Virus record (IMG/VR): IMGVR_UViG_2675903278_000002
Length of the DNA: 64,000 nucleotides
Source of the DNA: a virus
Lineage: Duplodnaviria; Heunggongvirae; Uroviricota; Caudoviricetes
Strand: one strand, 5' to 3'
In this document: piece after piece, positions 6,611-59,977 of the stretch
Layout of the letters: each line of letters opens with the position of its first letter
How positions within the stretch are numbered: position 1 is the stretch's first letter
The notes under the pieces: generated by a model
Seen by the model: only the letters and a program-made list of their open reading frames with translations
Told to the model about the DNA's origin: nothing
The model's database searches: none
Made by a program: the position numbers and the translations under genes

Positions 6611-6928
6611 GTATTCCTCCTGATGGCCGTGATGTAGGAAGGCCATCAATCTCCTCTGTTCAAACTGAGTTTTCGACTCAAAAATTACTTTAAAAGGCTA
6701 TAGCCCATTACGTGTGCATTATCAAATTGTGTACGGCATATCACCGTACTTGTAATATAGAGGTCATTGTTACTTTTTTCAACAGACAAATACAAGCTAT
6801 GATTGCCAATTGTTAATCACAACCTACCATTTAACCTTTACACCGCAGCCGTAGGCATTTAGGCTATATCACATATAAGAAAACAAGTTGTTTCAGACGA
6901 TAATTATATACGCAAAGGGAACTCTCCA

Positions 6929-10636: not shown

Positions 10637-10679
10637 CTAATACTAGAAAACAATTTGTTTAAAAAACAAAGGAAAGCAC

Positions 10680-30503: not shown

Positions 30504-30719
30504 TCAGCTTAGAGCAACGACATTTGCTGCTGCTGGGCCTTTAGCCCCATTCTCGATAGAGAATTCGACCTGCTGGCCTTCTTCCAAAGTGCGGAAATTA
30601 TTACTCTGAATTGCCGAAAAATGTACAAAAACATCTTTACTGCCATCAGCAGGAGAAATAAAGCCAAAGCCTTTATCAGAGTTAAACCATTTTACTAAAC
30701 CAGTCATTTTATTAGACAT
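30504..30719 (-). CDS. cspA: Cold-shock protein (CspA family)
   Basis: [21 protein letters not shown]... RNP1-like motif; 71 aa from the internal ATG at 30719. Confidence 0.85.
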
Positions 30720-31048
30720 AGATATTACCTTCTTAATTTTGTGAGCCACATAGTGCGGCGAGAATTTGATCTGTATAGATTGGGACTTACTTAGGCACTT
30801 AAGGAGGAGACTCACGAAGAAGGGAAATCAGAAGATAACACTGAACTGAGACTGCTTTACTAAAACTGCTTACATAAGGTCTGTCTTGCAAACCAACGAT
30901 GCTATTAACGCATACCCCTTCTTTTCATGCAACCTTTATTTTTCAAAGATAACTAATTTTTGTCACCATTGGTTTAGTAAACGTTAACGAACCAGACGAT
31001 GCCAGACACCTTTACAGAGAACAGATGCCCGCCAATTGGCGGGCATCA

Positions 31049-31612
31049 TTATGCGCATTTCGCAATATCTTTGCGGCGTTTAATCAGTTTCTCCGCAATT
31101 TGCTCTATTTCGTTGAAATCTTTCGAGACGCTGTTTCGAAGCGCCAGATTCCATTTACTCAAAGTTCGGGCATTTTGGACAATTTGATCGCCCTCTTTAA
31201 GTCGTCCGTTATTCATGAGCCATTCAGCCACATCAGCCCAATCCCAGAGAGGAGACTGGCCTTTTATGCGTTGTACAGGGCAAGGGAAGTCGCCGCTTCC
31301 GCGCTTACCGTCTTTGAGCAACGCCACTGCCTGGCGAGACAGGTCTGTCAGTTCCGCGATATCGCTTAAGCCCACAAGAGCCGAGTCGACGGATTCAACA
31401 ATTGCACCGATACCGGCTGATTCAATATTGTCGACCGCAGATGCGATAGCTGCATCAAGTGATTGTGCTTCGCGGTCAAATTCTACATAGACGGAGTTTC
31501 CATATGCGCAAATTAGCGCATCGTCACAGCCGTTTTGGTACAGCGCGTCTTCCAGTCCTTCCGTCTCATACGATACGCCTGAGAGCGTCAGAGTGAAGTT
31601 ATAAAGCGCCAT
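31049..31612 (-). CDS. Hypothetical protein; second gene of a minus-strand two-gene operon
   Basis: AAGGA RBS 5 nt before the ATG at 31612; no motif assigned with confidence. Confidence 0.45.
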   Translation of the reverse strand: MALYNFTLTLSGVSYETEGLEDALYQNGCDDALICAYGNSVYVEFDREAQSLDAAIASAVDNIESAGIGAIVESVDSALVGLSDIAELTDLSRQAVALLKDGKRGSGDFPCPVQRIKGQSPLWDWADVAEWLMNNGRLKEGDQIVQNARTLSKWNLALRNSVSKDFNEIEQIAEKLIKRRKDIAKCA

Positions 31613-31672
31613 AGTTTTCCTTTGAAGATAGTTGGACAGTTTCTGCAAAAGGCGGCTAATGCCGCCTTGAAA

Positions 31673-31897
31673 TCATTTACAACGATCAACCATTCGTTTG
31701 ATCTGTTTGGCATGGTTTTCGGGATTACCCGGAGTCGACCATACGCTCATTTGGTGAGTTTTGTGTTCACCTTCTGGATTACCGCATCGCAGTCTGCAAA
31801 AACAATGTGCAGCACCACCAGCTGCTACCCAGATCCAGCCTTTACTTAATGCATAGTCAATGGCTGCTTGAATATGCTTATTCGGATGTTGCTTCAT
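31673..31897 (-). CDS. Small protein (74 aa), weakly HicA-like; toxin candidate
   Basis: MKQ... start and segments KGWIWVAAGGAAH / SVWSTPGNP loosely resemble HicA; precedes a larger gene in the same operon. Confidence 0.35.
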   Translation of the reverse strand: MKQHPNKHIQAAIDYALSKGWIWVAAGGAAHCFCRLRCGNPEGEHKTHQMSVWSTPGNPENHAKQIKRMVDRCK

Positions 31898-32150
31898 TCG
31901 CCTCCGATAATAGTATTCTATTCACAGTGTTGACATCTGTCAACGGCGACTGAATTTCATCCGTTCATGCCACACCCCCATCCATCTCATGTATGTGACC
32001 TAAAGATGGTCAGCACAGCTTACCAAAATAAGACAACTAATTATCTTCGGTGATCTCAATATTTCCCCTGAACAAAGTTGACATGACGCCATAAACCCGT
32101 TCTCTGTTTGATATAATTGATACAGATTTTATAAGTAGGAACCTATTAGA

Positions 32151-32582
32151 GTGAACACTGATATTTTTTCTAAAATCATGGCCGATCTGGAGTTCGACCG
32201 CGACAACCTTGAGGAAGTATGGCGTAAACAGCCACGGCTTTTAATGGAGTATGGGTCAAAACTAGCGCAGGCAGATCGAGATGTCGCAGAGGCAAAACTT
32301 AACCTTGAAGCTGTTGAAGCAAAGCTATACGACACAGAGCGTAAGAACTTGAGTATGAACGGCATTAAGTTTAACGAGTCTGTACTGGACGCTAAGGTTA
32401 AAACAAACCCACAGTATCTGTCTAAACGGCAGAAGTTGGATGAAGCACGGCACATCGCAGACATATACAAACATGCTGTCGCCGCCTTTTCGCATCGCCG
32501 AGACATGATCGTTCAGGCGTCAAAGATGGCCATCGTTGAATTAGAGCGATTAGGCTCTGAACGCTTTATTACTCCCCGTTGA
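32151..32582 (+). CDS. Hypothetical coiled-coil protein (GTG start)
   Basis: 143 aa ORF; charged helical composition. Confidence 0.4.
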   Translation: MNTDIFSKIMADLEFDRDNLEEVWRKQPRLLMEYGSKLAQADRDVAEAKLNLEAVEAKLYDTERKNLSMNGIKFNESVLDAKVKTNPQYLSKRQKLDEARHIADIYKHAVAAFSHRRDMIVQASKMAIVELERLGSERFITPR

Positions 32583-32699
32583 TTTTTGATAGATAATAAG
32601 TAAGTACTGATCTATCATCTAACAGCTCGAAAGAGCCACGAATGAACGAAAGCCCAACGCGCATAGCGCCATCGGCCAAATCACAACAAGGAGAAACAC

Positions 32700-33728
32700 A
32701 TGTCTAAGACATTACTTGATTTGCTTAACAAAACTCGTGAAGACATTGCCGCCAAACGTGGCAACAACGTTGATCTGACTCGCTTAAAAGACGGCGTCAA
32801 CTATATCCGCATCTTCCCGAATAAAGACGACCCAAACGGTAAGTTCTTCCAGACTTTCGGTATGCACTACGTTAAGTATCAGAACGAGGAAGGTAAAGAA
32901 GCAACCAACGCTTATATTTGTGAGCAACATACTCACGGTCGCGCTTGTCAGCTATGCGAAATGGTTATGGAAGGTCGCGCTCGTCACAAGGGTAACAAAG
33001 CAATGGAAGAACGCATCGGTCAAATGCGTGCCACTCCTCGCTACCTGGTCAACGGCATTCTTTCTGCTCGTGAGGATTTCGCAGATGCTGAGAAATGCCA
33101 GTTAATCGAGCTGCCGTCTACTGTATTCGATGATATCTGCAAAGCAATCACCGAAGACATCGCTGATGATATCGGCAATCCACTGAGCAAAGAGGAAGGC
33201 TACGCATTCCTGATTAAACGTACTGGCTCTGGTCGCGATACCAAATATGACGTCTCGCCTAAGCGTAAAGTCTACAAAGGCGATATCGAAGATAAATTCT
33301 GGAACACCCAGCATGATCTGATCGCATACGCAAATCAGGCTGATGAAACTCGTCTTCTGTCGACAGTTCGCACTATGGGTCGTCTGATTGGCATCGCTGC
33401 ACCAACTGCCGCAGCATCTGCACCAGCAATTTCCTCAACCGCGAAAACATCGGCTGCGGCACTACCTGGATTTGGCTCTGTCACTGGTCATACGGAGGGT
33501 GCGACTGCTGTAGCAACCGCTCACACCCCAGCTTCTGAACCAACCAGTCTGGTTGATGAAGAAATCCTCCGTGCCGTTGAAACTGAATTTAAACCAGAAG
33601 CAAGTTCCGCTGCCGTTGCCGTATCAGTCAAAGAGTCTGAAGCAGTCGCAGCGACATCTGTAGCAGCCGCATCTGCGACGGAAGACGAAGGTCTGGATGA
33701 CCTACTGAGAGAGCTGGACTCTCTGTAA
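32700..33728 (+). CDS. Single-stranded DNA-binding protein, T4 gp32-like
   Basis: NYIRIFPNKDDPNGKFFQTFGMHYVK and His/Cys cluster CEQHTHGRACQLCE resemble the gp32 core and zinc site; Ala/Ser-rich acidic C-terminal tail. Confidence 0.65.
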   Translation: MSKTLLDLLNKTREDIAAKRGNNVDLTRLKDGVNYIRIFPNKDDPNGKFFQTFGMHYVKYQNEEGKEATNAYICEQHTHGRACQLCEMVMEGRARHKGNKAMEERIGQMRATPRYLVNGILSAREDFADAEKCQLIELPSTVFDDICKAITEDIADDIGNPLSKEEGYAFLIKRTGSGRDTKYDVSPKRKVYKGDIEDKFWNTQHDLIAYANQADETRLLSTVRTMGRLIGIAAPTAAASAPAISSTAKTSAAALPGFGSVTGHTEGATAVATAHTPASEPTSLVDEEILRAVETEFKPEASSAAVAVSVKESEAVAATSVAAASATEDEGLDDLLRELDSL

Positions 33729-33743
33729 TCCCATTACGTGACC

Positions 33744-33775
33744 AGTAAGGCGTCTACGGACGCCTTACTTTTTGG
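33744..33775 (+). terminator. Rho-independent terminator (GTAAGGCGTC-TACG-GACGCCTTAC + TTTTT)
   Basis: Read directly; member of a shared AGGCGTC...GACGCCT terminator family with 36079..36108 and 37217..37246. Confidence 0.7.
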
Positions 33776-33787
33776 AAGGAATGTACC

Positions 33788-34733
33788 GGTGAATTATCTC
33801 TTCGTAGATGGCAATAGCCTGGGTTATTACCACCAACAATCTGACAAATTGCACAACGGCGAAATGGAAGTACAGGCTGCTTTCGGCTTTGTTAAGAACG
33901 TCCGTCGTTATGCCTCCATCCTCCATGCCCGACCTATGATTCTTTGGGATGGATTTAGTGACAAGCGTCGCGACTTTTACCCGGACTACAAAGCAAATCG
34001 CGACGACGATCCTGATATGAAAAAGATGAAGGAAGGCTTTGCTATCCAGAAGCCATACATCCTCAAAATGATGACCGCGCTTGGAGTTACCCAACTCATT
34101 GCAAAAGATGCAGAAGCGGATGATCTGGCCGGGCTGCTGGTATCCCGCATGGCACCGCAGCCAACCGTTGAACACATCTATCTGTTAACAGGCGATAGCG
34201 ACTGGCTTCAGTTAGTTCGTGAAAACGTAAGCTGGGTAAGCCTGCGTGAAGACGCCAAAAACAAGCAGGTTAATTTTGAGCAATTTGCGGAGCTGACAGG
34301 ATTCGCCACGCCTCGCGCATTTTTGGAAGCAAAAGCATTACAAGGCGATAACTCGGACAACATTAGCGGTGTTGGTGGCATTGGTGCTGGCGGTGCGAAA
34401 GAGCTGCTGCATGAATGGGGAAGTGTCGCAACGATGGTACGCGGCATCAACGACGGCTCAATCGTGGTTAATAAAGGGCGTCATAAGACCGCCTTCAACA
34501 AACTAGCGAAGAATGCCTTCAACGAGAAAACAGGCTGTCGAATGCTCGAAGCGTTCAAGAGAAACATCACGCTAATGAACCTGATTGAGACGAAGTTTCC
34601 GCCTACCGAAATCGAAACAATCAAAGGCAATCGTGACGTGAAAGCATTCGAGCAACTGTGCTACGAGCTGAATTTCCGTTCGTTCCTTGAAGACCTTGAA
34701 GTGTTTGTTCTTCCATTCGAAAGGTATTGCTAA
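33788..34733 (+). CDS. 5'-3' exonuclease / flap endonuclease (FEN, T4 RNase H / T5 D15-like)
   Basis: PIN-like motifs DGNSLGYY, AEADDLAG, LTGDSDWLQL and H3TH-like GVGGIGAGGAKELL; GTG 33788 chosen because the annotated ATG 33738 lies upstream of and runs through the terminator hairpin. Confidence 0.7.
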
Positions 34734-34999
34734 TGCTTAAATCGATTATCAATGGCGCTACAACCACCCCTGCCCAACTGGCAAAAGAGATTGTCTTTTA
34801 TCACGGTGAGTACGCTGTCATCGCACTGCCGTCAATTCTAGGCGCTGCCGGAATGAAAGCGACAGATCGCGAGTTTGGATTAGTCAGCGAGCAGGTCGTA
34901 AAAATCCTCGCTCGTGTATCCAGACTCCTTAACCACGATGCGATTGTATTCGATGAATCCGCCGCTTTAAAACGAATCAACGAAACAAAAGGAGCCTGA
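34727..34999 (+). CDS. Hypothetical protein
   Basis: 90 aa ORF overlapping the FEN stop. Confidence 0.4.
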   Translation: MLMLKSIINGATTTPAQLAKEIVFYHGEYAVIALPSILGAAGMKATDREFGLVSEQVVKILARVSRLLNHDAIVFDESAALKRINETKGA

Positions 35000-35001
35000 T
35001 C

Positions 35002-36075
35002 ATGGCAAAAGGAAAATCCGCACTGGCACTTGCTCTGAAAAAGAAAATCGGTAGCAACGACGAAATTCAGAAAGTAACTCATTGGATTGATACAGGCTTT
35101 CCACCGTTAAACAAAGCTATTTCTGGTCGTTACGATGGCGGCTTCCCATGTGGTCGTATCGTCGAAGTATTCGGTCCTCCAAGTGCAGGGAAAACGTTCC
35201 TTGCAACAGCAGCGATGATCTCCGCTCAAAAACAAGATGGTCTGGCGGTATTCCTCGATCATGAAAACAGTTTTGACGTTGGCCTGGCTGTAGCCAATGG
35301 CCTGAACGCAGATGAGGATGACGGTCAGTGGGTATACAAGCAGCCAGATACCTTCGAAGACTCTGTAGAGTTGATCGGCACAATACTTAAATTGGTTCGT
35401 GATGAAGAGCTTATCCCCGAATCAGCACCTATCTGTATCGTGGCTGACTCTCTTGCGTCTATGGTTCCGAACTCCAAAGCCGAGAAGTTCGAAAAGATGG
35501 CTGAAGGCACTGCCAAAGACAAAGATCAGCTAAACATGAACGACAATACGGCACTGGCTCGTGCGACGAGTGCGAACTTCCCTACTCTGGCTTTGTGGGC
35601 ACGCAAATACAACGCCTGCATCATCTTCTTGAATCAGGTTCGCACAAAAATCGGTGTAATGTTTGGCGACCCTACTACGTCGCCAGGTGGAGATTCACCG
35701 AAGTTCTACGCTTCTGTACGTATCCGTCTTGGTGCATCGGTGATGAAGGATGGTAAAGAGAAGATCGGCCAGGACGTAGGCGCAGAATGCATCAAAAACA
35801 AAGTTGCACCACCGTATGGCAAATGCACCTGGAAATTCTACTTCGATCCTACTCGTGGCCTCGACGTTATCGAATCGCTCGTCGAGTACATGCTGGAAGA
35901 AGGATACCTGCCAAAGAACGCCAGCGGGCGAGTTGAAATTGGTGACAAGAAATACACCAAATCGCAGATCGTTGAGATGTATCGGGAGAAGCCACTGGCT
36001 GAAATCATTGCGGCTTTGCAGGCAATCGACGACCGAAGAGCAAAAGACAACCCCACCGAGTCAGTAGAAGAGTAA
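35002..36075 (+). CDS. RecA-family recombinase (RecA/UvsX-like)
   Basis: Walker A GPPSAGKTFLA and RecA-like core; 357 aa. Confidence 0.8.
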   Translation: MAKGKSALALALKKKIGSNDEIQKVTHWIDTGFPPLNKAISGRYDGGFPCGRIVEVFGPPSAGKTFLATAAMISAQKQDGLAVFLDHENSFDVGLAVANGLNADEDDGQWVYKQPDTFEDSVELIGTILKLVRDEELIPESAPICIVADSLASMVPNSKAEKFEKMAEGTAKDKDQLNMNDNTALARATSANFPTLALWARKYNACIIFLNQVRTKIGVMFGDPTTSPGGDSPKFYASVRIRLGASVMKDGKEKIGQDVGAECIKNKVAPPYGKCTWKFYFDPTRGLDVIESLVEYMLEEGYLPKNASGRVEIGDKKYTKSQIVEMYREKPLAEIIAALQAIDDRRAKDNPTESVEE

Positions 36076-36078
36076 ACA

Positions 36079-36108
36079 CAAGGCGTCCACAGGACGCCTT
36101 TTTTATCT
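36079..36108 (+). terminator. Rho-independent terminator
   Basis: AAGGCGTCC-ACAG-GACGCCTT + TTTTAT. Confidence 0.75.
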
Positions 36109-36167
36109 CTTGAAAATATATAAGTACTTACTTATTATTTTCGCATAACAACCACATAGGAAAACAC

Positions 36168-36368
36168 ATGATCAAAATCTATCTATTGGCAGTAACCACA
36201 GGCCTTTCAGTGGCTCTCATCTACGGTTTACTGGTTCCGTCGCTGATTTCTACCAAGAGTGATTTAGCCGTCATGTTTGGAGTTATCGTTGGTTTTGGTG
36301 CTCCTGTAATCGGTCTTATTGCTGGTCGTAAGTTTATCAACTCATTAATCAAAGCAAAGGGGAAATAA
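36168..36368 (+). CDS. Small two-helix membrane protein
   Basis: 66 aa hydrophobic ORF; ATG preceded by GGAAAACACATG. Confidence 0.45.
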   Translation: MIKIYLLAVTTGLSVALIYGLLVPSLISTKSDLAVMFGVIVGFGAPVIGLIAGRKFINSLIKAKGK

Positions 36369-36371
36369 GTA

Positions 36372-37202
36372 ATGAAGAAAGGTTTACTTGCAGTTGCTCT
36401 GGCGGCTATTTGCACAATGGGTCTTACTGGCTGCGATCGCGTGGAGCCTGGATACGTTGGCATCAAAGTAAACAAATTAGGTGAAGACAAAGGGATTGGT
36501 GAAGTGGTTGGCGTTGGTCGCCAATGGACAGGTCTTAACACCGAACTTTACGTATTCCCGACCTTCAAACAAATGAAGACCTACGACGAGCCGTTCACAT
36601 TCCAGATGAGTGACGGTACTGCTATTGGTCACAAAATTGGCGTTGCGTATCTGGTTAATCGTGACAAGGTAACGACGGTGTTCCAGACCTATCGCAAAGG
36701 CGTAGACGATATCACCGAATCAGATCTGCGTCAGAAAATTGCCGACTCTCTAAACCGTTTGGCCAGCCGTATGACCACTGACTCATTTATCGACGGTGGT
36801 AAGGCACAATTGCTGGACAACGCACTGAAAGATATTCAGAAAGAGATGTCTCCGGTTGGTATTGAGGTACTGAGCCTGTCATGGGTTGGAAAGCCTGATT
36901 ACCCAAAAACTGTCATTGAATCTATTAACGCCAAAGTAACGGCTAACCAGCGTACTCTGCAACGTCAGCAGGAAGTTGAACAACGTAAAGCTGAGGCGAA
37001 TATGCTACGTGAACAGGCTAATGGTGAAGCTGATGCTATCCGTGCTCGTGCGCAAGCAGAAGCAGACGCCATTCGTCTGCGCGGTGAAGCTCTGCGTCAA
37101 AACCCGAACGTTATGGAACTGGAAGCCATCAATAAATGGAATGGCCAGTTACCGCAGTACATGACTCAAGGGGCTAACACTCCTTTCATTACAGTGAAAT
37201 AA
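36372..37202 (+). CDS. SPFH/band-7 domain lipoprotein
   Basis: Signal peptide with lipobox LTGC; SPFH-like core and C-terminal coiled coil rich in EA/RA repeats. Confidence 0.6.
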   Translation: MKKGLLAVALAAICTMGLTGCDRVEPGYVGIKVNKLGEDKGIGEVVGVGRQWTGLNTELYVFPTFKQMKTYDEPFTFQMSDGTAIGHKIGVAYLVNRDKVTTVFQTYRKGVDDITESDLRQKIADSLNRLASRMTTDSFIDGGKAQLLDNALKDIQKEMSPVGIEVLSLSWVGKPDYPKTVIESINAKVTANQRTLQRQQEVEQRKAEANMLREQANGEADAIRARAQAEADAIRLRGEALRQNPNVMELEAINKWNGQLPQYMTQGANTPFITVK

Positions 37203-37216
37203 CTCCCCTAAAAAGT

Positions 37217-37246
37217 TCAGGCGTCCAGTTGGACGCCTTTTTTATC
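37217..37246 (+). terminator. Rho-independent terminator
   Basis: CAGGCGTCC-AGTT-GGACGCCT + TTTTTTAT. Confidence 0.75.
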
Positions 37247-37293
37247 GCAATTATCTTATTAAGAAAACAATTTGTTTAAAAGGATAAGAAAAC

Positions 37294-37719
37294 ATGACAG
37301 CTATTAAGAAACTCTACGATGCCGCAAACGTGGCTCTGGATGTTATTGATGATGAAGTAGCAAAAGGCTTTCCTGAACCTGATTGGGCGCATCAGCTACG
37401 AAACGCTATCGCAGAAATGACCCCACCAGATCCAACCCCCGACGAGACAGACTGGCAGCGATTCATCCGTATGTACGCTCAGGAAATAGGTCCAACGCCA
37501 ACGGCAGAGCAGGCAATGCTGCTGAAATACTTCAAAGAGGCGGGAGAGGATTTACCAATTGATGACTCAGCATATTGGTTCCACTGCGCATGGCGTAAGT
37601 ATGACGTGATATTCACACAAGGCATGGGAAGCAAAGATATGGTTGTGTGGCATCTACTCCATATAGACACAGCCGTTGACAGAGTTATTGAACAGTTTTT
37701 CCCTAAACAAGAAGATTGA
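37294..37719 (+). CDS. Hypothetical protein
   Basis: 141 aa ORF; upstream AAACAATTTGTTT palindrome and AAAACATG start context. Confidence 0.5.
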   Translation: MTAIKKLYDAANVALDVIDDEVAKGFPEPDWAHQLRNAIAEMTPPDPTPDETDWQRFIRMYAQEIGPTPTAEQAMLLKYFKEAGEDLPIDDSAYWFHCAWRKYDVIFTQGMGSKDMVVWHLLHIDTAVDRVIEQFFPKQED

Positions 37720-37774
37720 TCGCCTATTCATAACTAACAAAATAAGTAAACACTAACCACAAAAGGAAAAACAC

Positions 37775-38050
37775 ATGAGAGTTTTAGTTCGAATCGTTAC
37801 CAGCACTGTCTATGACGTGTTTCCGCTTTTTATGGTCAAAGCCGATGGCCTTAACGACGAAGAAACTGACGCGCTGATCCAGCGTATTCTCGTTGAATAT
37901 ACAGGTCATGACGCTGATTCAGTGATGGTTGATGATGATGGTGTTTGTTGGCATAACGGCAACTGTTGGTACGTAGAAGAGACTCAACAAATCAGTGATG
38001 AAGATGCCGAACATCTTGAGCGTATTTTAAGCATCAGCACTTTTGAGTGA
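37775..38050 (+). CDS. Hypothetical acidic protein
   Basis: 91 aa ORF with GGAAAAACACATG start context. Confidence 0.5.
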   Translation: MRVLVRIVTSTVYDVFPLFMVKADGLNDEETDALIQRILVEYTGHDADSVMVDDDGVCWHNGNCWYVEETQQISDEDAEHLERILSISTFE

Positions 38051-38265
38051 GTTTACAGTAAAATTTATATAAGTTAGTATCTACCTATCATGAAGATTTT
38101 TATTGAATACTTGTTACTCATCGTTTCAATAGCTTTTGTCATCGACTGCATTTTCACTGGTGTCATTCGTAAAGTCTTTTCCCCGGTGCACGACGTAGTC
38201 ATAAACGCTTTGGCTATCGTGCTCGTATTTAATTCAGCATTTGATGTAATCAAAGAGGTGGCAGC

Positions 38266-38601
38266 ATGAAGGCCATCCCATTCGCGCTGTTGTTCCTTTC
38301 TTCGATCGTTGTGGCCGACACCACTGTTTATCAGTGTGAAATGTCTGTAGCCGACGTTAAGAATGGCGCTCTTACCGACGTCATAAAAGCACCATATGGA
38401 GCGATGGTCGTAGACAGCGGCGACCAGTTCTATGTTGTGCGTGACGATCGAGTGTTGTCATCCCCATATCTCACAAATCGTAATGGCAAATTAACCGGCG
38501 TCGGAGAAGACCACTTCGTATACAACAAATACAAGGGCTTCTATGGCGTTCACGCTTCTCAGCAAAGCTACCTTTTCGATGACTGCAAGGAGGTTGGATA
38601 A
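38266..38601 (+). CDS. Hypothetical secreted protein
   Basis: N-terminal signal-peptide-like MKAIPFALLFLSSIVVA. Confidence 0.45.
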   Translation: MKAIPFALLFLSSIVVADTTVYQCEMSVADVKNGALTDVIKAPYGAMVVDSGDQFYVVRDDRVLSSPYLTNRNGKLTGVGEDHFVYNKYKGFYGVHASQQSYLFDDCKEVG

Positions 38602-38813
38602 TGGCATTAACACTGGCAGGTCTGGAAATCGAGAAAACAAGCGGCTACTGGCGTGCTAAGGGTTTCAAGCAGCCTGGCATTCTTGAGCGTCTGGAACGTG
38701 AAGATGGGTATATCGTCCACCAGCGGCGTGAATGGCGTATGTACGATCCAGAAACAGGAAAACTGACTACAAAAGCCGGAACACTTTGGGGTCTGTTGAA
38801 GAAAATACACTAA
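38601..38813 (+). CDS. Hypothetical protein
   Basis: 70 aa ORF with start overlapping the upstream stop. Confidence 0.35.
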   Translation: MALTLAGLEIEKTSGYWRAKGFKQPGILERLEREDGYIVHQRREWRMYDPETGKLTTKAGTLWGLLKKIH

Positions 38814-38821
38814 TAGCACCA

Positions 38822-39300
38822 ACCACTGCGGTGAGTAGTCTGCTCACCGCATTCGTATCCAGCTCATTATCCACTGTAGTCAGTAACAAAACCTTCCTAC
38901 ATATCTGCTAACCACTGTAGCGAGTAGACAGCCTTTCATTCGCATCAAACAACCACTATGGTGAGTATTGGAGTGAGATGTCCAGCGGGTATCCACTATG
39001 GTGAGTAAGCCTTTGCTGTTTTCAGTGGATATCCACTCGCCACAGTGGATACGCTCAAAGATGAGGGCGACAACAACCACTATAGACAGTAAATTTTCCA
39101 AGATACCCAGTGACCACTAACCTCGCAGCCCTTGTTTCATCAGTGTTAGTGATCACTAACATTTAATTCAGTATTTGCATTCTACTGCCTACAGTGGTTA
39201 TCAACAGATAACGATACTCACTATAGTGGATAGCGAATTACAGATATAAGTAAGGCTCACTACAGTGGATAGTGAGCCTTACTACTAACTACAGTGGTTG
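38822..39300. repeat. Iteron array downstream of the rep gene (copy-control, incA-like): roughly ten copies of CTATAGTGGAT / CCACTATAG-type repeats in both orientations
   Basis: Direct reading: CCACTGTAGTGAGTAG, CCACTATGGTGAGTA, ATCCACTATGGTGAGTAAG, CTCACTATAGTGGATAGCG, CTCACTACAGTGGATAGTGAG and others. Confidence 0.75.
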
Positions 39301-48973: not shown

Positions 48974-49039
48974 AGCCTTGTTTAAACACATAAGATAACA
49001 ACTTGTTTAAACGCACCAAAAAAGAAAAAGGAAAAACAC

Positions 49040-59161: not shown

Positions 59162-59254
59162 CGGCTGTTAGTGCATATGCATTGACCATCTCTGCGTAAG
59201 CAATTTATGTAATTAGAAAACAACTTGTTTTGACAAATAATAAAAGGAAAACAC

Positions 59255-59870: not shown

Positions 59871-59977
59871 GACCGAAATAGAGAGTTTGCACCTTTACGT
59901 TTAGCTTGCTCCCCTTTTATGCCACATCACAATAAAGCCAATAAGAAAACAACTTGTTTAAGCATTAGGAAAAACAC

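Follow-up and report, generated by a model that had tools for sequence, protein, structure and literature searches.

Why should three successive gene boundaries of a phage-plasmid carry the same hairpin? The question is raised by a stretch of 64,000 nt from the IMG/VR record IMGVR_UViG_2675903278_000002, which is termed here the window and belongs to an SSU5-like phage-plasmid. The window is ~98% identical to Escherichia phage Cyrano, 99.9% identical to the Escherichia coli plasmid NZ_CP020118.1 (complete, 111,212 bp) and ~79% identical to Salmonella phage SSU5. It contains a T4-like recombination block on the + strand that is punctuated by three hairpins, called hp1, hp2 and hp3 in the order of the sequence. 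All are built on the stem (A)AGGCGTC(C)/(G)GACGCCT(T), and each is followed by a run of T on the coding strand. We read these as three Rho-independent terminators that derive from one ancestral hairpin and divide the recombination block, where the repeats formed by hp2 and hp3 have led more than once to deletion of the gene cassette lying between them. We would give this reading a probability of roughly 75%. The hairpins are real and not a product of chance, and they are best explained as paralogous intrinsic terminators, of which two double as deletion endpoints.

The same stem at three gene boundaries

An earlier note on this DNA, made from the letters alone, had pointed to three elements with a common stem, and reading the sequence finds each of them where it was placed (Table 1). 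The note gave all three a loop of four nucleotides. This is correct for hp1 (TACG) and hp3 (AGTT), but the loop of hp2 has three nucleotides, or five if the closing C-G pair is opened. The stem of hp1 is 11 bp in length, built around the core GGCGTC/GACGCC, and its UACG tetraloop is closed by a C-G pair. The stems of hp2 and hp3 are 9 and 8 bp respectively, and at both the U-run comprises six U in all. Every gene from 32151 to 39120 lies on the + strand, and the hairpins begin shortly after stop codons: 16 nt after that of the single-stranded DNA-binding protein (SSB) gene for hp1, 4 nt after that of recA for hp2, and 16 nt after that of the SPFH gene for hp3. The T-run of hp1 is separated from the GTG start of the exonuclease gene by 15 nt.

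The recurrence of the stem is not expected by chance. The window has three matches to the pattern AGGCGTC-N2-8-GACGCCT, whereas 100 dinucleotide-preserving shuffles gave none, and in the complete 111,212-bp relative these three are the only copies of the stem. A scan of that relative gives 37 terminator-like hairpins, among which the trio is the only triple with shared arms of 7–8 nt; its members are consecutive on one strand and fall within 3.5 kb. Compared with shuffled controls the folds have z = -3.7 (hp1), -6.3 (hp2) and -4.4 (hp3), with hairpin energies of -19.0, -14.1 and -14.5 kcal/mol in the same order. The T-tail scores are 3.1 for hp1, which has four to five U, 4.8 for hp2 and 5.0 for hp3, and hp2 and hp3 were also recovered by the terminator scan.

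Thus the anatomy is that of intrinsic terminators at gene boundaries, and in this respect the earlier interpretation holds. There is a stable G+C-rich stem-loop with a short loop, located after a stop codon in the orientation of the genes, and the pairing has been maintained. A U-rich tract 3′ to the stem is present in hp2 and hp3, and weakly so in hp1. In NZ_CP020118.1 the U-run of hp2 has a T-to-G change (GGACGCCTTGTTTATC; 81444–81470, corresponding to window 36080–36107), and this should weaken the predicted termination after recA in that isolate.

Table 1. Genes, hairpins, repeats and predicted regulatory sequences of the window.
Feature	Position	Strand	Description
UvsY-like gene		+	Upstream part of recombination block, with the SSB gene before hp1; Cyrano annotation, no Pfam match
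gp32-like SSB gene	32700–33728	+	Pfam PF08804 gp32, E = 1.7e-66; annotated in Cyrano as SSB, T4 gp32-like; directly upstream of hp1
hp1	33744–33773	+	Arm AGTAAGGCGTC 33744–33754, loop TACG 33755–33758, arm GACGCCTTACT 33759–33769, TTTT 33770–33773
5′-3′ exonuclease gene	33789–34733	+	GTG start; Pfam 5_3_exonuc_N, E = 1.9e-24
90-aa ORF	34727–34999	+	Between exonuclease gene and recA
recA	35002–36075	+	Pfam RecA, E = 2.2e-42
hp2	36080–36104	+	Arm AAGGCGTCC 36080–36088, loop ACA 36089–36091, arm GGACGCCTT 36092–36100, TTTT 36101–36104
Left direct-repeat copy	36081–36107	+	AGGCGTCC 36081–36088, GGACGCCTTTTTTATC 36092–36107
Sigma-70-like promoter	36110–36138	+	TTGAAA-17-TATTAT; 10/12 consensus positions in promoter scan; directly after hp2
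Perfect palindrome	36120–36135		ATAAGTA-CT-TACTTAT, between -35 and -10 of cassette promoter
Accessory cassette	36168–37202	+	Membrane-protein and SPFH genes; present or absent among relatives; boundaries exactly at hp2 and hp3
66-aa membrane protein gene	36168–36368	+	First gene of cassette
SPFH/Band-7 protein gene	36372–37202	+	Second gene of cassette; Pfam Band_7, E = 2.6e-30
hp3	37219–37243	+	Arm AGGCGTCC 37219–37226, loop AGTT 37227–37230, arm GGACGCCT 37231–37238, TTTTT 37239–37243
Palindromic motif AAGAAAACAATTTGTTT	37261–37277	+	Downstream of hp3; one of 7 window copies
DUF7238 gene	37294–37719	+	Next gene after hp3
Copies of (A)AGAAAACAA-N-TTGTTT	6877–6893, 10644–10660, 23030–23046 (-), 37261–37277, 48992–49008, 59214–59230, 59943–59959		Includes the copy downstream of hp3

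Conservation among related elements

How far does this arrangement extend? Relatives were sampled unselected by means of the exonuclease protein, giving 80 IMG/VR loci and 5 genome loci, to which annotated plasmids and phages were added. The 5 genome loci, from a scan of genome contigs with the exonuclease profile, contributed little apart from Kluyvera, Buttiauxella and a distant Piscirickettsiaceae contig. The trio is found at orthologous positions in every enterobacterial SSU5-like phage-plasmid lineage examined, with the same stem at the same three boundaries in SSU5, pMT1, the Klebsiella, Kluyvera and Buttiauxella elements and the 80 unselected IMG/VR relatives. The core of hp1 is still paired in ~89 of 93 related loci, and the loop is UNCG (UACG, UGCG or UUCG) in nearly all of them. 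Indeed, the core is kept in locus L003, where the SSB protein is only ~40% identical and the loop is UUCG, and in L004, where SSB is equally divergent, it has a single G•U pair (GGGCGTC/GACGCTC). Among the relatives the stem of hp2 hardly varies while its loop takes at least 11 forms, and the orthologues of hp3 have loops of AGTT, ACTT, ATT or GAGTTG.

Changes within the stem are rare, and the pairing is mostly preserved. In pMT1 and L004 the sequence GGCGTCC/GGACGCC is changed to the compensated GGCGCCC/GGGCGCC, with a U•G intermediate in L175 and L176, and at the base of the stem A-U is replaced by C-G or G•U in some relatives. Over 23 distinct variants of hp2 and hp3, 94.7% of cells are paired, and both sides have changed at two of the pairs (U-A to C-G via U•G, and A-U to C-G). 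The covariation score lies above all 500 shuffles; most pairs never vary. Rare compensatory changes in a stem whose loops are free have the appearance of a selected hairpin, and the tolerated U•G fits a function as RNA of the sense strand.

At greater distance the junction between the SSB and exonuclease genes retains a hairpin of different sequence. In an Acinetobacter phage-plasmid (L102:5390–5480) the junction comprises a hairpin, U-run, ribosome-binding site and GTG start, and the stem is unrelated to that of the trio (AAAGCCGC-TATAGCT-GCGGCTTT). Another unrelated hairpin, lacking a U-run, is located there in the Piscirickettsiaceae contig L110 (AGAAAGGGTCTC-TTTT-GGGACCCTTTCT). Thus the intra-operon position of a hairpin is much older than the shared stem, and what is conserved in depth is the position and the structure rather than this sequence.

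Probable loss of the cassette between hp2 and hp3

A newly recognised property of hp2 and hp3 is that they are direct repeats bounding a deletable cassette. The left copy is identical to 37219–37226 and 37231–37246, so that repeats of 8 + 16 nt are placed 1,138 bp apart. On tblastn analysis neither of the cassette proteins was matched in 36 of the 93 loci, although in around a third of these the sequence stops shortly beyond recA. The clean cassette-free architecture, in which SSB, hairpin, exonuclease, hypothetical gene, recA and hairpin are followed by H141, is present in 24.

The junctions in the cassette-free genomes are hybrids of the two hairpins. In the E. coli type the left flank and ACA loop of hp2 are joined to the right flank of hp3 (L117, L139, L013, L057 and L065), with the crossover in the right arm or the T-run. 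These genomes are otherwise almost identical to the window, and of 180 matching PLSDB plasmids 7 carry the junction as an exact match of 98 nt. In the SSU5 type the left flank of hp2 is joined to the ACTT loop and right flank of hp3 (L143, L147, L153, L156 and others), and the crossover lies in the left arm. The cassette itself is present in all the deep lineages, including those of ~70% identity, which makes loss the most economical origin for the genomes that lack it. Recurrent loss of the cassette by recombination or slippage at the short repeats is the simplest reading. Short-homology recombination or replication slippage between hp2 and hp3 would remove the cassette to leave one hybrid hairpin, and this has probably occurred more than once.

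The possibility that the hairpin travels with the SPFH gene was rejected. The P1-like plasmid L008 and phage P88 (L009) have SPFH genes of 75% identity with other flanks, and thus the repeat belongs to the backbone and not to the cargo.

The slot that follows the recA terminator (window 36105 onward) differs in its cargo among the relatives, holding the SPFH cassette, nothing, or other open reading frames (ORFs). At L178:5013–6605 it holds a 530-aa protein that matches the candidate defence family HEC-07 (PADLOC E = 5.5e-30). Cargo in the reverse orientation is found at L186:4284–5060 (-), L003:6255–6980 (-) and L125:8534–9274 (-). A reverse-oriented protein of 258 aa at this slot matches helix-turn-helix entries of Pfam only weakly and below threshold (best E = 1.6e-4), and the other reverse ORFs have no family match. 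A second presence/absence polymorphism adjoins hp2 from the other side, since recA is 1.07 kb in the window as against 2.3 kb in Cyrano and many relatives (L001:6004–8343), and annotation assigns the extra sequence there to an intein or LAGLIDADG homing endonuclease.

Proposed division of the recombination block into expression units

What would the hairpins do? We propose that they act as sense-strand RNA on the host RNA polymerase, that the ancestral hairpin was copied before the enterobacterial SSU5-like phage-plasmids diverged, and that the resulting trio splits the T4-like recombination block into expression units. The promoter scan revealed no + strand promoter-like site between 32618 and 36110. 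Taken with the 15-nt gap preceding the exonuclease start, this suggests that expression of the exonuclease and recA needs read-through of hp1, and it is for this reason that hp1 looks leaky. Thus hp1 is most likely a leaky intra-operon terminator or a 3′ stabiliser. With its extra-stable C(UNCG)G tetraloop and only four to five U it could bring about partial termination or protect the 3′ end of the SSB mRNA, with the effect that more SSB would be made than exonuclease and RecA.

In contrast to hp1, hp2 and hp3 look like efficient terminators. The former would end the recombination operon after recA, with a sigma-70-type promoter placed directly next, and the latter would end the membrane-protein/SPFH cassette and overlap the start of the next promoter region. 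The predicted promoter that follows hp2 is conserved in SSU5, pMT1, a Klebsiella oxytoca plasmid and Cyrano, and would drive the cassette. It lacks the GAAAACAA-N-TTGTTT palindrome that is found at many other promoters of the element, which is only suggestive as regards expression in the lysogen. The perfect palindrome between its -35 and -10 hexamers is conserved in SSU5, pMT1 and the Klebsiella elements, and in L084 a different palindrome (TAGGTAGGTAACTACCTA) is present at the same place; this exchange suggests a separate operator for the cassette promoter.

At hp3 the sequence TTGGAC runs from the loop into the 3′ arm and might serve the next promoter as its -35 box (37229–37257, read by inspection). 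A -10-like hexamer is located 16–17 nt further on, being TATCTT in the window, TATTAT in SSU5 and TACAAT in L004. The hp3 terminator may therefore overlap a -35 box, and the E. coli-type deletion junction turns TTGGAC into CAGGAC.

Origin and function of the shared stem

To account for the common stem the earlier note had suggested either duplication of a terminator module or selection for a specific hairpin, for example one recognised by an antiterminator or RNase. Duplication remains the best account; the trio occupies orthologous positions in every enterobacterial lineage examined. The stem might instead have arisen by convergence, if three independent terminators had settled on the same good G+C-rich sequence. 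The range of sequences open to a terminator stem is small, 7–8 nt are shared by other terminator pairs of these genomes, and unrelated phage contigs contain the same stem with a T-run. Yet the pattern is absent from all the shuffles, no second triple exists among the 37 candidates, the three lie consecutively on one strand over so short a distance, and hp2 and hp3 share in addition the following TTTTTTATC, making 16 identical nucleotides on the right side. We therefore regard convergence as unlikely, while allowing it more weight than the other alternatives discussed here. A different possibility is that the copies are kept identical by ongoing gene conversion through the UvsX/UvsY/gp32-type recombination of the element, and not by selection on each hairpin. 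A full recombination module is encoded next to the repeats, and recombination between hp2 and hp3 demonstrably occurs. However, derived states are confined to one copy, and concerted evolution was rejected for this reason. The base of the hp3 stem is ACGG in the SSU5, K. oxytoca and L175 lineages where hp2 has AAGG, which argues against homogenisation between the copies, and in the E. coli type the base of hp3 is CAGG. Moreover, GGCGCCC is limited to hp2 in pMT1 and GGCGCC to hp3 in L003, and the sister copies of each genome lack the change. Of all the explanations weighed, gene conversion is the least probable.

Could the stem have a significance beyond its stability? It might be a recognition element for a phage or host factor, be it an antiterminator, RNase or RNA-binding regulator, that jointly controls the three boundaries. 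At the three sites the core GGCGTC(C)/(G)GACGCC hardly varies among lineages down to ~70% DNA identity and is kept behind an SSB gene whose product has diverged to ~40% identity, the hp1 loop is limited to UNCG, and the gene for a CspG-like RNA chaperone lies ~3 kb upstream. But unrelated terminators of the same genomes are conserved as well as the trio when the E. coli type, SSU5 and the 70%-identity Klebsiella lineage are compared; these include AAAGGGTGGGC, which follows a capsid gene, together with GGGCCACTA and TGGTGGCC. The copies of the trio change independently and by compensation, and the UNCG loops are accounted for by stability alone. Furthermore, hp2 has been swapped for unrelated terminators in four lineages, L084 (GAGGGGTGC-TAAC-GCACCCCTTC), L003 and L186/L189, while hp1 and hp3 stay unchanged. 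The equal conservation of other terminators and the replacement of hp2 thus leave no sign of a dedicated antiterminator or RNase. Selection for such a factor, the second suggestion of the earlier note, is not supported, and we consider the recognition of this stem very unlikely. The palindrome might alternatively act as DNA, being the target of a site-specific recombinase or nuclease, a cruciform or an operator, and in this way mobilise the cassette. The cassette boundaries coincide exactly with the palindromes, the slot after hp2 holds different cargo according to lineage, and there is an integrase gene elsewhere on the element. Against this, the crossover points vary from one event to another, as expected for homology-driven exchange and not for a fixed cleavage site, and this argues against a site-specific enzyme. 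The T-run is present on the coding strand only in all copies, U•G intermediates are tolerated, and this hairpin is missing from the flanks of the same SPFH gene where it occurs in P1-like plasmids and phage P88. Integron attC sites are, moreover, much longer than these hairpins and less perfect. A role at the level of the DNA is thus highly improbable, and paralogous intrinsic terminators remain our preferred explanation.

Known elements of these classes were also compared with the hairpins directly. The attC site is an imperfect palindrome of 57–141 bp with R and L boxes and extrahelical bases, acted on by the integron integrase (PMC9892861); the present hairpins are perfect palindromes of 20–26 nt with varying crossover points, and this assignment was rejected. 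SSU5 figures in that paper only incidentally. When the upstream flanks of hp1, hp2 and hp3 were compared there was no shared sequence able to form an alternative (antiterminator) structure, and an Rfam search of 31500–38500 gave no match at E <= 1. A protein-controlled terminator, whether of the BglG/LicT-type with a ribonucleic antiterminator (RAT) or by nut/put-type antitermination, finds no support in these unrelated flanks and the lack of an Rfam match. The hairpin is not a mobile element of wide occurrence either: when 2.9 million viral contigs were scanned, 92 loci came up, 65 of them SSU5-like, and the remainder consist of a single group of metagenomic phages, unrelated and with a UUCG loop, plus ~12 singletons. 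In that group (IMG sample 3300045988) AAGGCGTCC-TTCG-GGACGCCTT is followed by a T-run, once per contig (L015, L018, L029, L031, L055, L061, L068, L073–L075, L083, L087, L089 and L090), and it looks like an independent use of the same stem.

SSU5 contains a further duplicated terminator, AGCGCCCA-CTA-TGGGCGCT, with copies of identical loop ~250 bp apart on the - strand of NC_018843.1 (~95664 and ~95913). It is also present in NZ_CP020118.1 (~13382, - strand). Local copying of a terminator is thus not unique to the trio.

A number of points weigh against the reading as duplicated terminators and deletion endpoints. Termination at the three hairpins is deduced from anatomy and conservation, and the short U-run of hp1 would also fit a hairpin that purely stabilises or processes the mRNA. 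The stems are too short to prove common descent; a few unrelated terminator pairs share 7–8 nt, and among the 2.9 million contigs the stem also turns up here and there in unrelated phages (~13 contexts). Single-side changes to G•U outnumber those to A•C by ~5 to 3 variant types, a small excess that would point to RNA of the + strand but comprises too few changes to fix the strand, and by itself it does not exclude a role for the DNA. Lastly, some of the cassette-free states may in principle be ancestral, or have resulted from allelic exchange in the flanking genes.

Recognition of the stem might also take the form of a switch. A factor encoded by the phage-plasmid, such as the CspG-like chaperone or an RNA-binding protein, might open or cleave exactly these hairpins, and so convert the operon, the cassette and the downstream genes from insulated units in the plasmid state into one read-through unit during lytic growth. 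The stem would in that case serve also as portable homology for the exchange of accessory or defence cargo after recA. We think this highly improbable, if marginally less so than the action of the palindrome as DNA.

Neighbouring genes and a second palindrome

Just upstream of the recombination operon, and in the opposite orientation, there are genes for a CspG-like cold-shock protein and a HicA/HicB toxin-antitoxin pair (window ~30504–30815 (-) and 31049–31897 (-)). Csp proteins can serve as general antiterminators; nothing ties the CspG-like protein to the hairpins.

The palindromic motif downstream of hp3 may serve the DUF7238 gene as an operator or promoter element. It belongs to a set with the form (A)AGAAAACAA-N-TTGTTT, of which the window has 7 copies where 0.10 would be expected (Table 1). 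There are ~17–20 copies per genome in the E. coli type, SSU5 and the 70%-identity Klebsiella lineage. They are nearly always on the coding strand, 15–40 nt before a start codon and usually behind a -10-like hexamer, which in the clearest cases (GATAAT or TATTAT) precedes the motif by ~11–12 nt. The motif looks like the operator of a global regulator acting over many promoters, for which the C1 operators of P1 offer a comparison, or a phage-specific promoter element. Outside the window, in a region of small ORFs at ~5.9–12.3 kb of NZ_CP020118.1, it takes the form of repeated promoter/operator cassettes before each gene. This palindrome may outweigh the hairpin trio in interest. In the literature searched on SSU5, pHCM2 and pMT1 we found nothing on their operators or terminators, nor did we find a description of the TTGTTT palindrome.

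Comparison with known systems

As terminators the three hairpins are ordinary. Like the intrinsic terminators of enterobacteria and their phages they have a G+C-rich stem of 8–11 bp, a loop of 3–4 nt and a 3′ U-run, and are placed just after stop codons. The stem is conserved, the loops are free and there are compensatory substitutions. They differ in that three consecutive terminators are built on the same stem, and in that hp1 lies inside an operon, has a short U-run and abuts the next ribosome-binding site, so that it probably attenuates transcription rather than stopping it.

It is a general principle in bacteria that attenuating or stabilising hairpins within an operon set unequal expression along a polycistronic mRNA. 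The location of hp1 between SSB, which is needed in bulk, and enzymes needed at a low level, together with its very stable tetraloop and weak U-run, would be in keeping with this. Here, however, the sequence of the stem is reused at true operon ends.

The closest parallel for the repeats is found in the T4-type phages, where promoter-early stem-loops (PeSLs) are repeated terminator-promoter units whose exchanges create insertions and deletions (Arbiol et al. 2010, PMC2839356; Comeau et al. 2014, PMC4122927). There are ~50 PeSLs per genome, concentrated in the hyperplastic regions of lytic myoviruses (PMC2839356). The present elements resemble PeSLs in being repeated intergenic stem-loop terminators, joined at hp2 and perhaps at hp3 to predicted sigma-70-type promoters, and in that accessory genes are inserted or deleted by recombination between copies. 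Certain PeSL subclasses have a stem-loop that overlaps the -35 box, which also seems to be so for hp3. Yet the element here is a temperate siphovirus-type phage-plasmid with three copies, not dozens; what the copies have in common is the terminator stem and not the promoter, and hp1 has no promoter. Loss of the cassette at hp2 and hp3 thus resembles PeSL shuffling in T4 on a small scale. The promoter/operator cassettes that precede the small ORFs of NZ_CP020118.1 are also strongly similar to PeSLs.

The cassette may be compared in turn with the morons, which were reportedly defined by Juhala et al. in 2000. A moron is an autonomous promoter-gene-terminator unit of a temperate phage (bioRxiv 10.1101/2022.10.28.514194). 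The membrane-protein/SPFH pair has its own predicted promoter and terminator, lies between backbone genes and is variably present, and in structural terms it fits the definition. It differs in that its terminator copies the upstream backbone terminator, which would make it a self-deleting unit.

Our analysis describes an ordinary example of the way in which phage genomes are built and reshuffled, with no new mechanism. Its main practical value is an operon map of a T4-like recombination module in a widespread family of enterobacterial phage-plasmids, which includes Yersinia pestis pMT1, the pHCM2-type elements of Salmonella Typhi, SSU5 and Cyrano. It marks the slot after recA as a site of variable cargo, one candidate defence gene included. 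It also provides an account at the level of the base pair of why the SPFH cassette is present in some members of the family and cleanly missing from others, with twin terminators as the deletion endpoints, and so adds a small case outside the T4 group in which repeated regulatory hairpins would promote the modular gain and loss of accessory genes.

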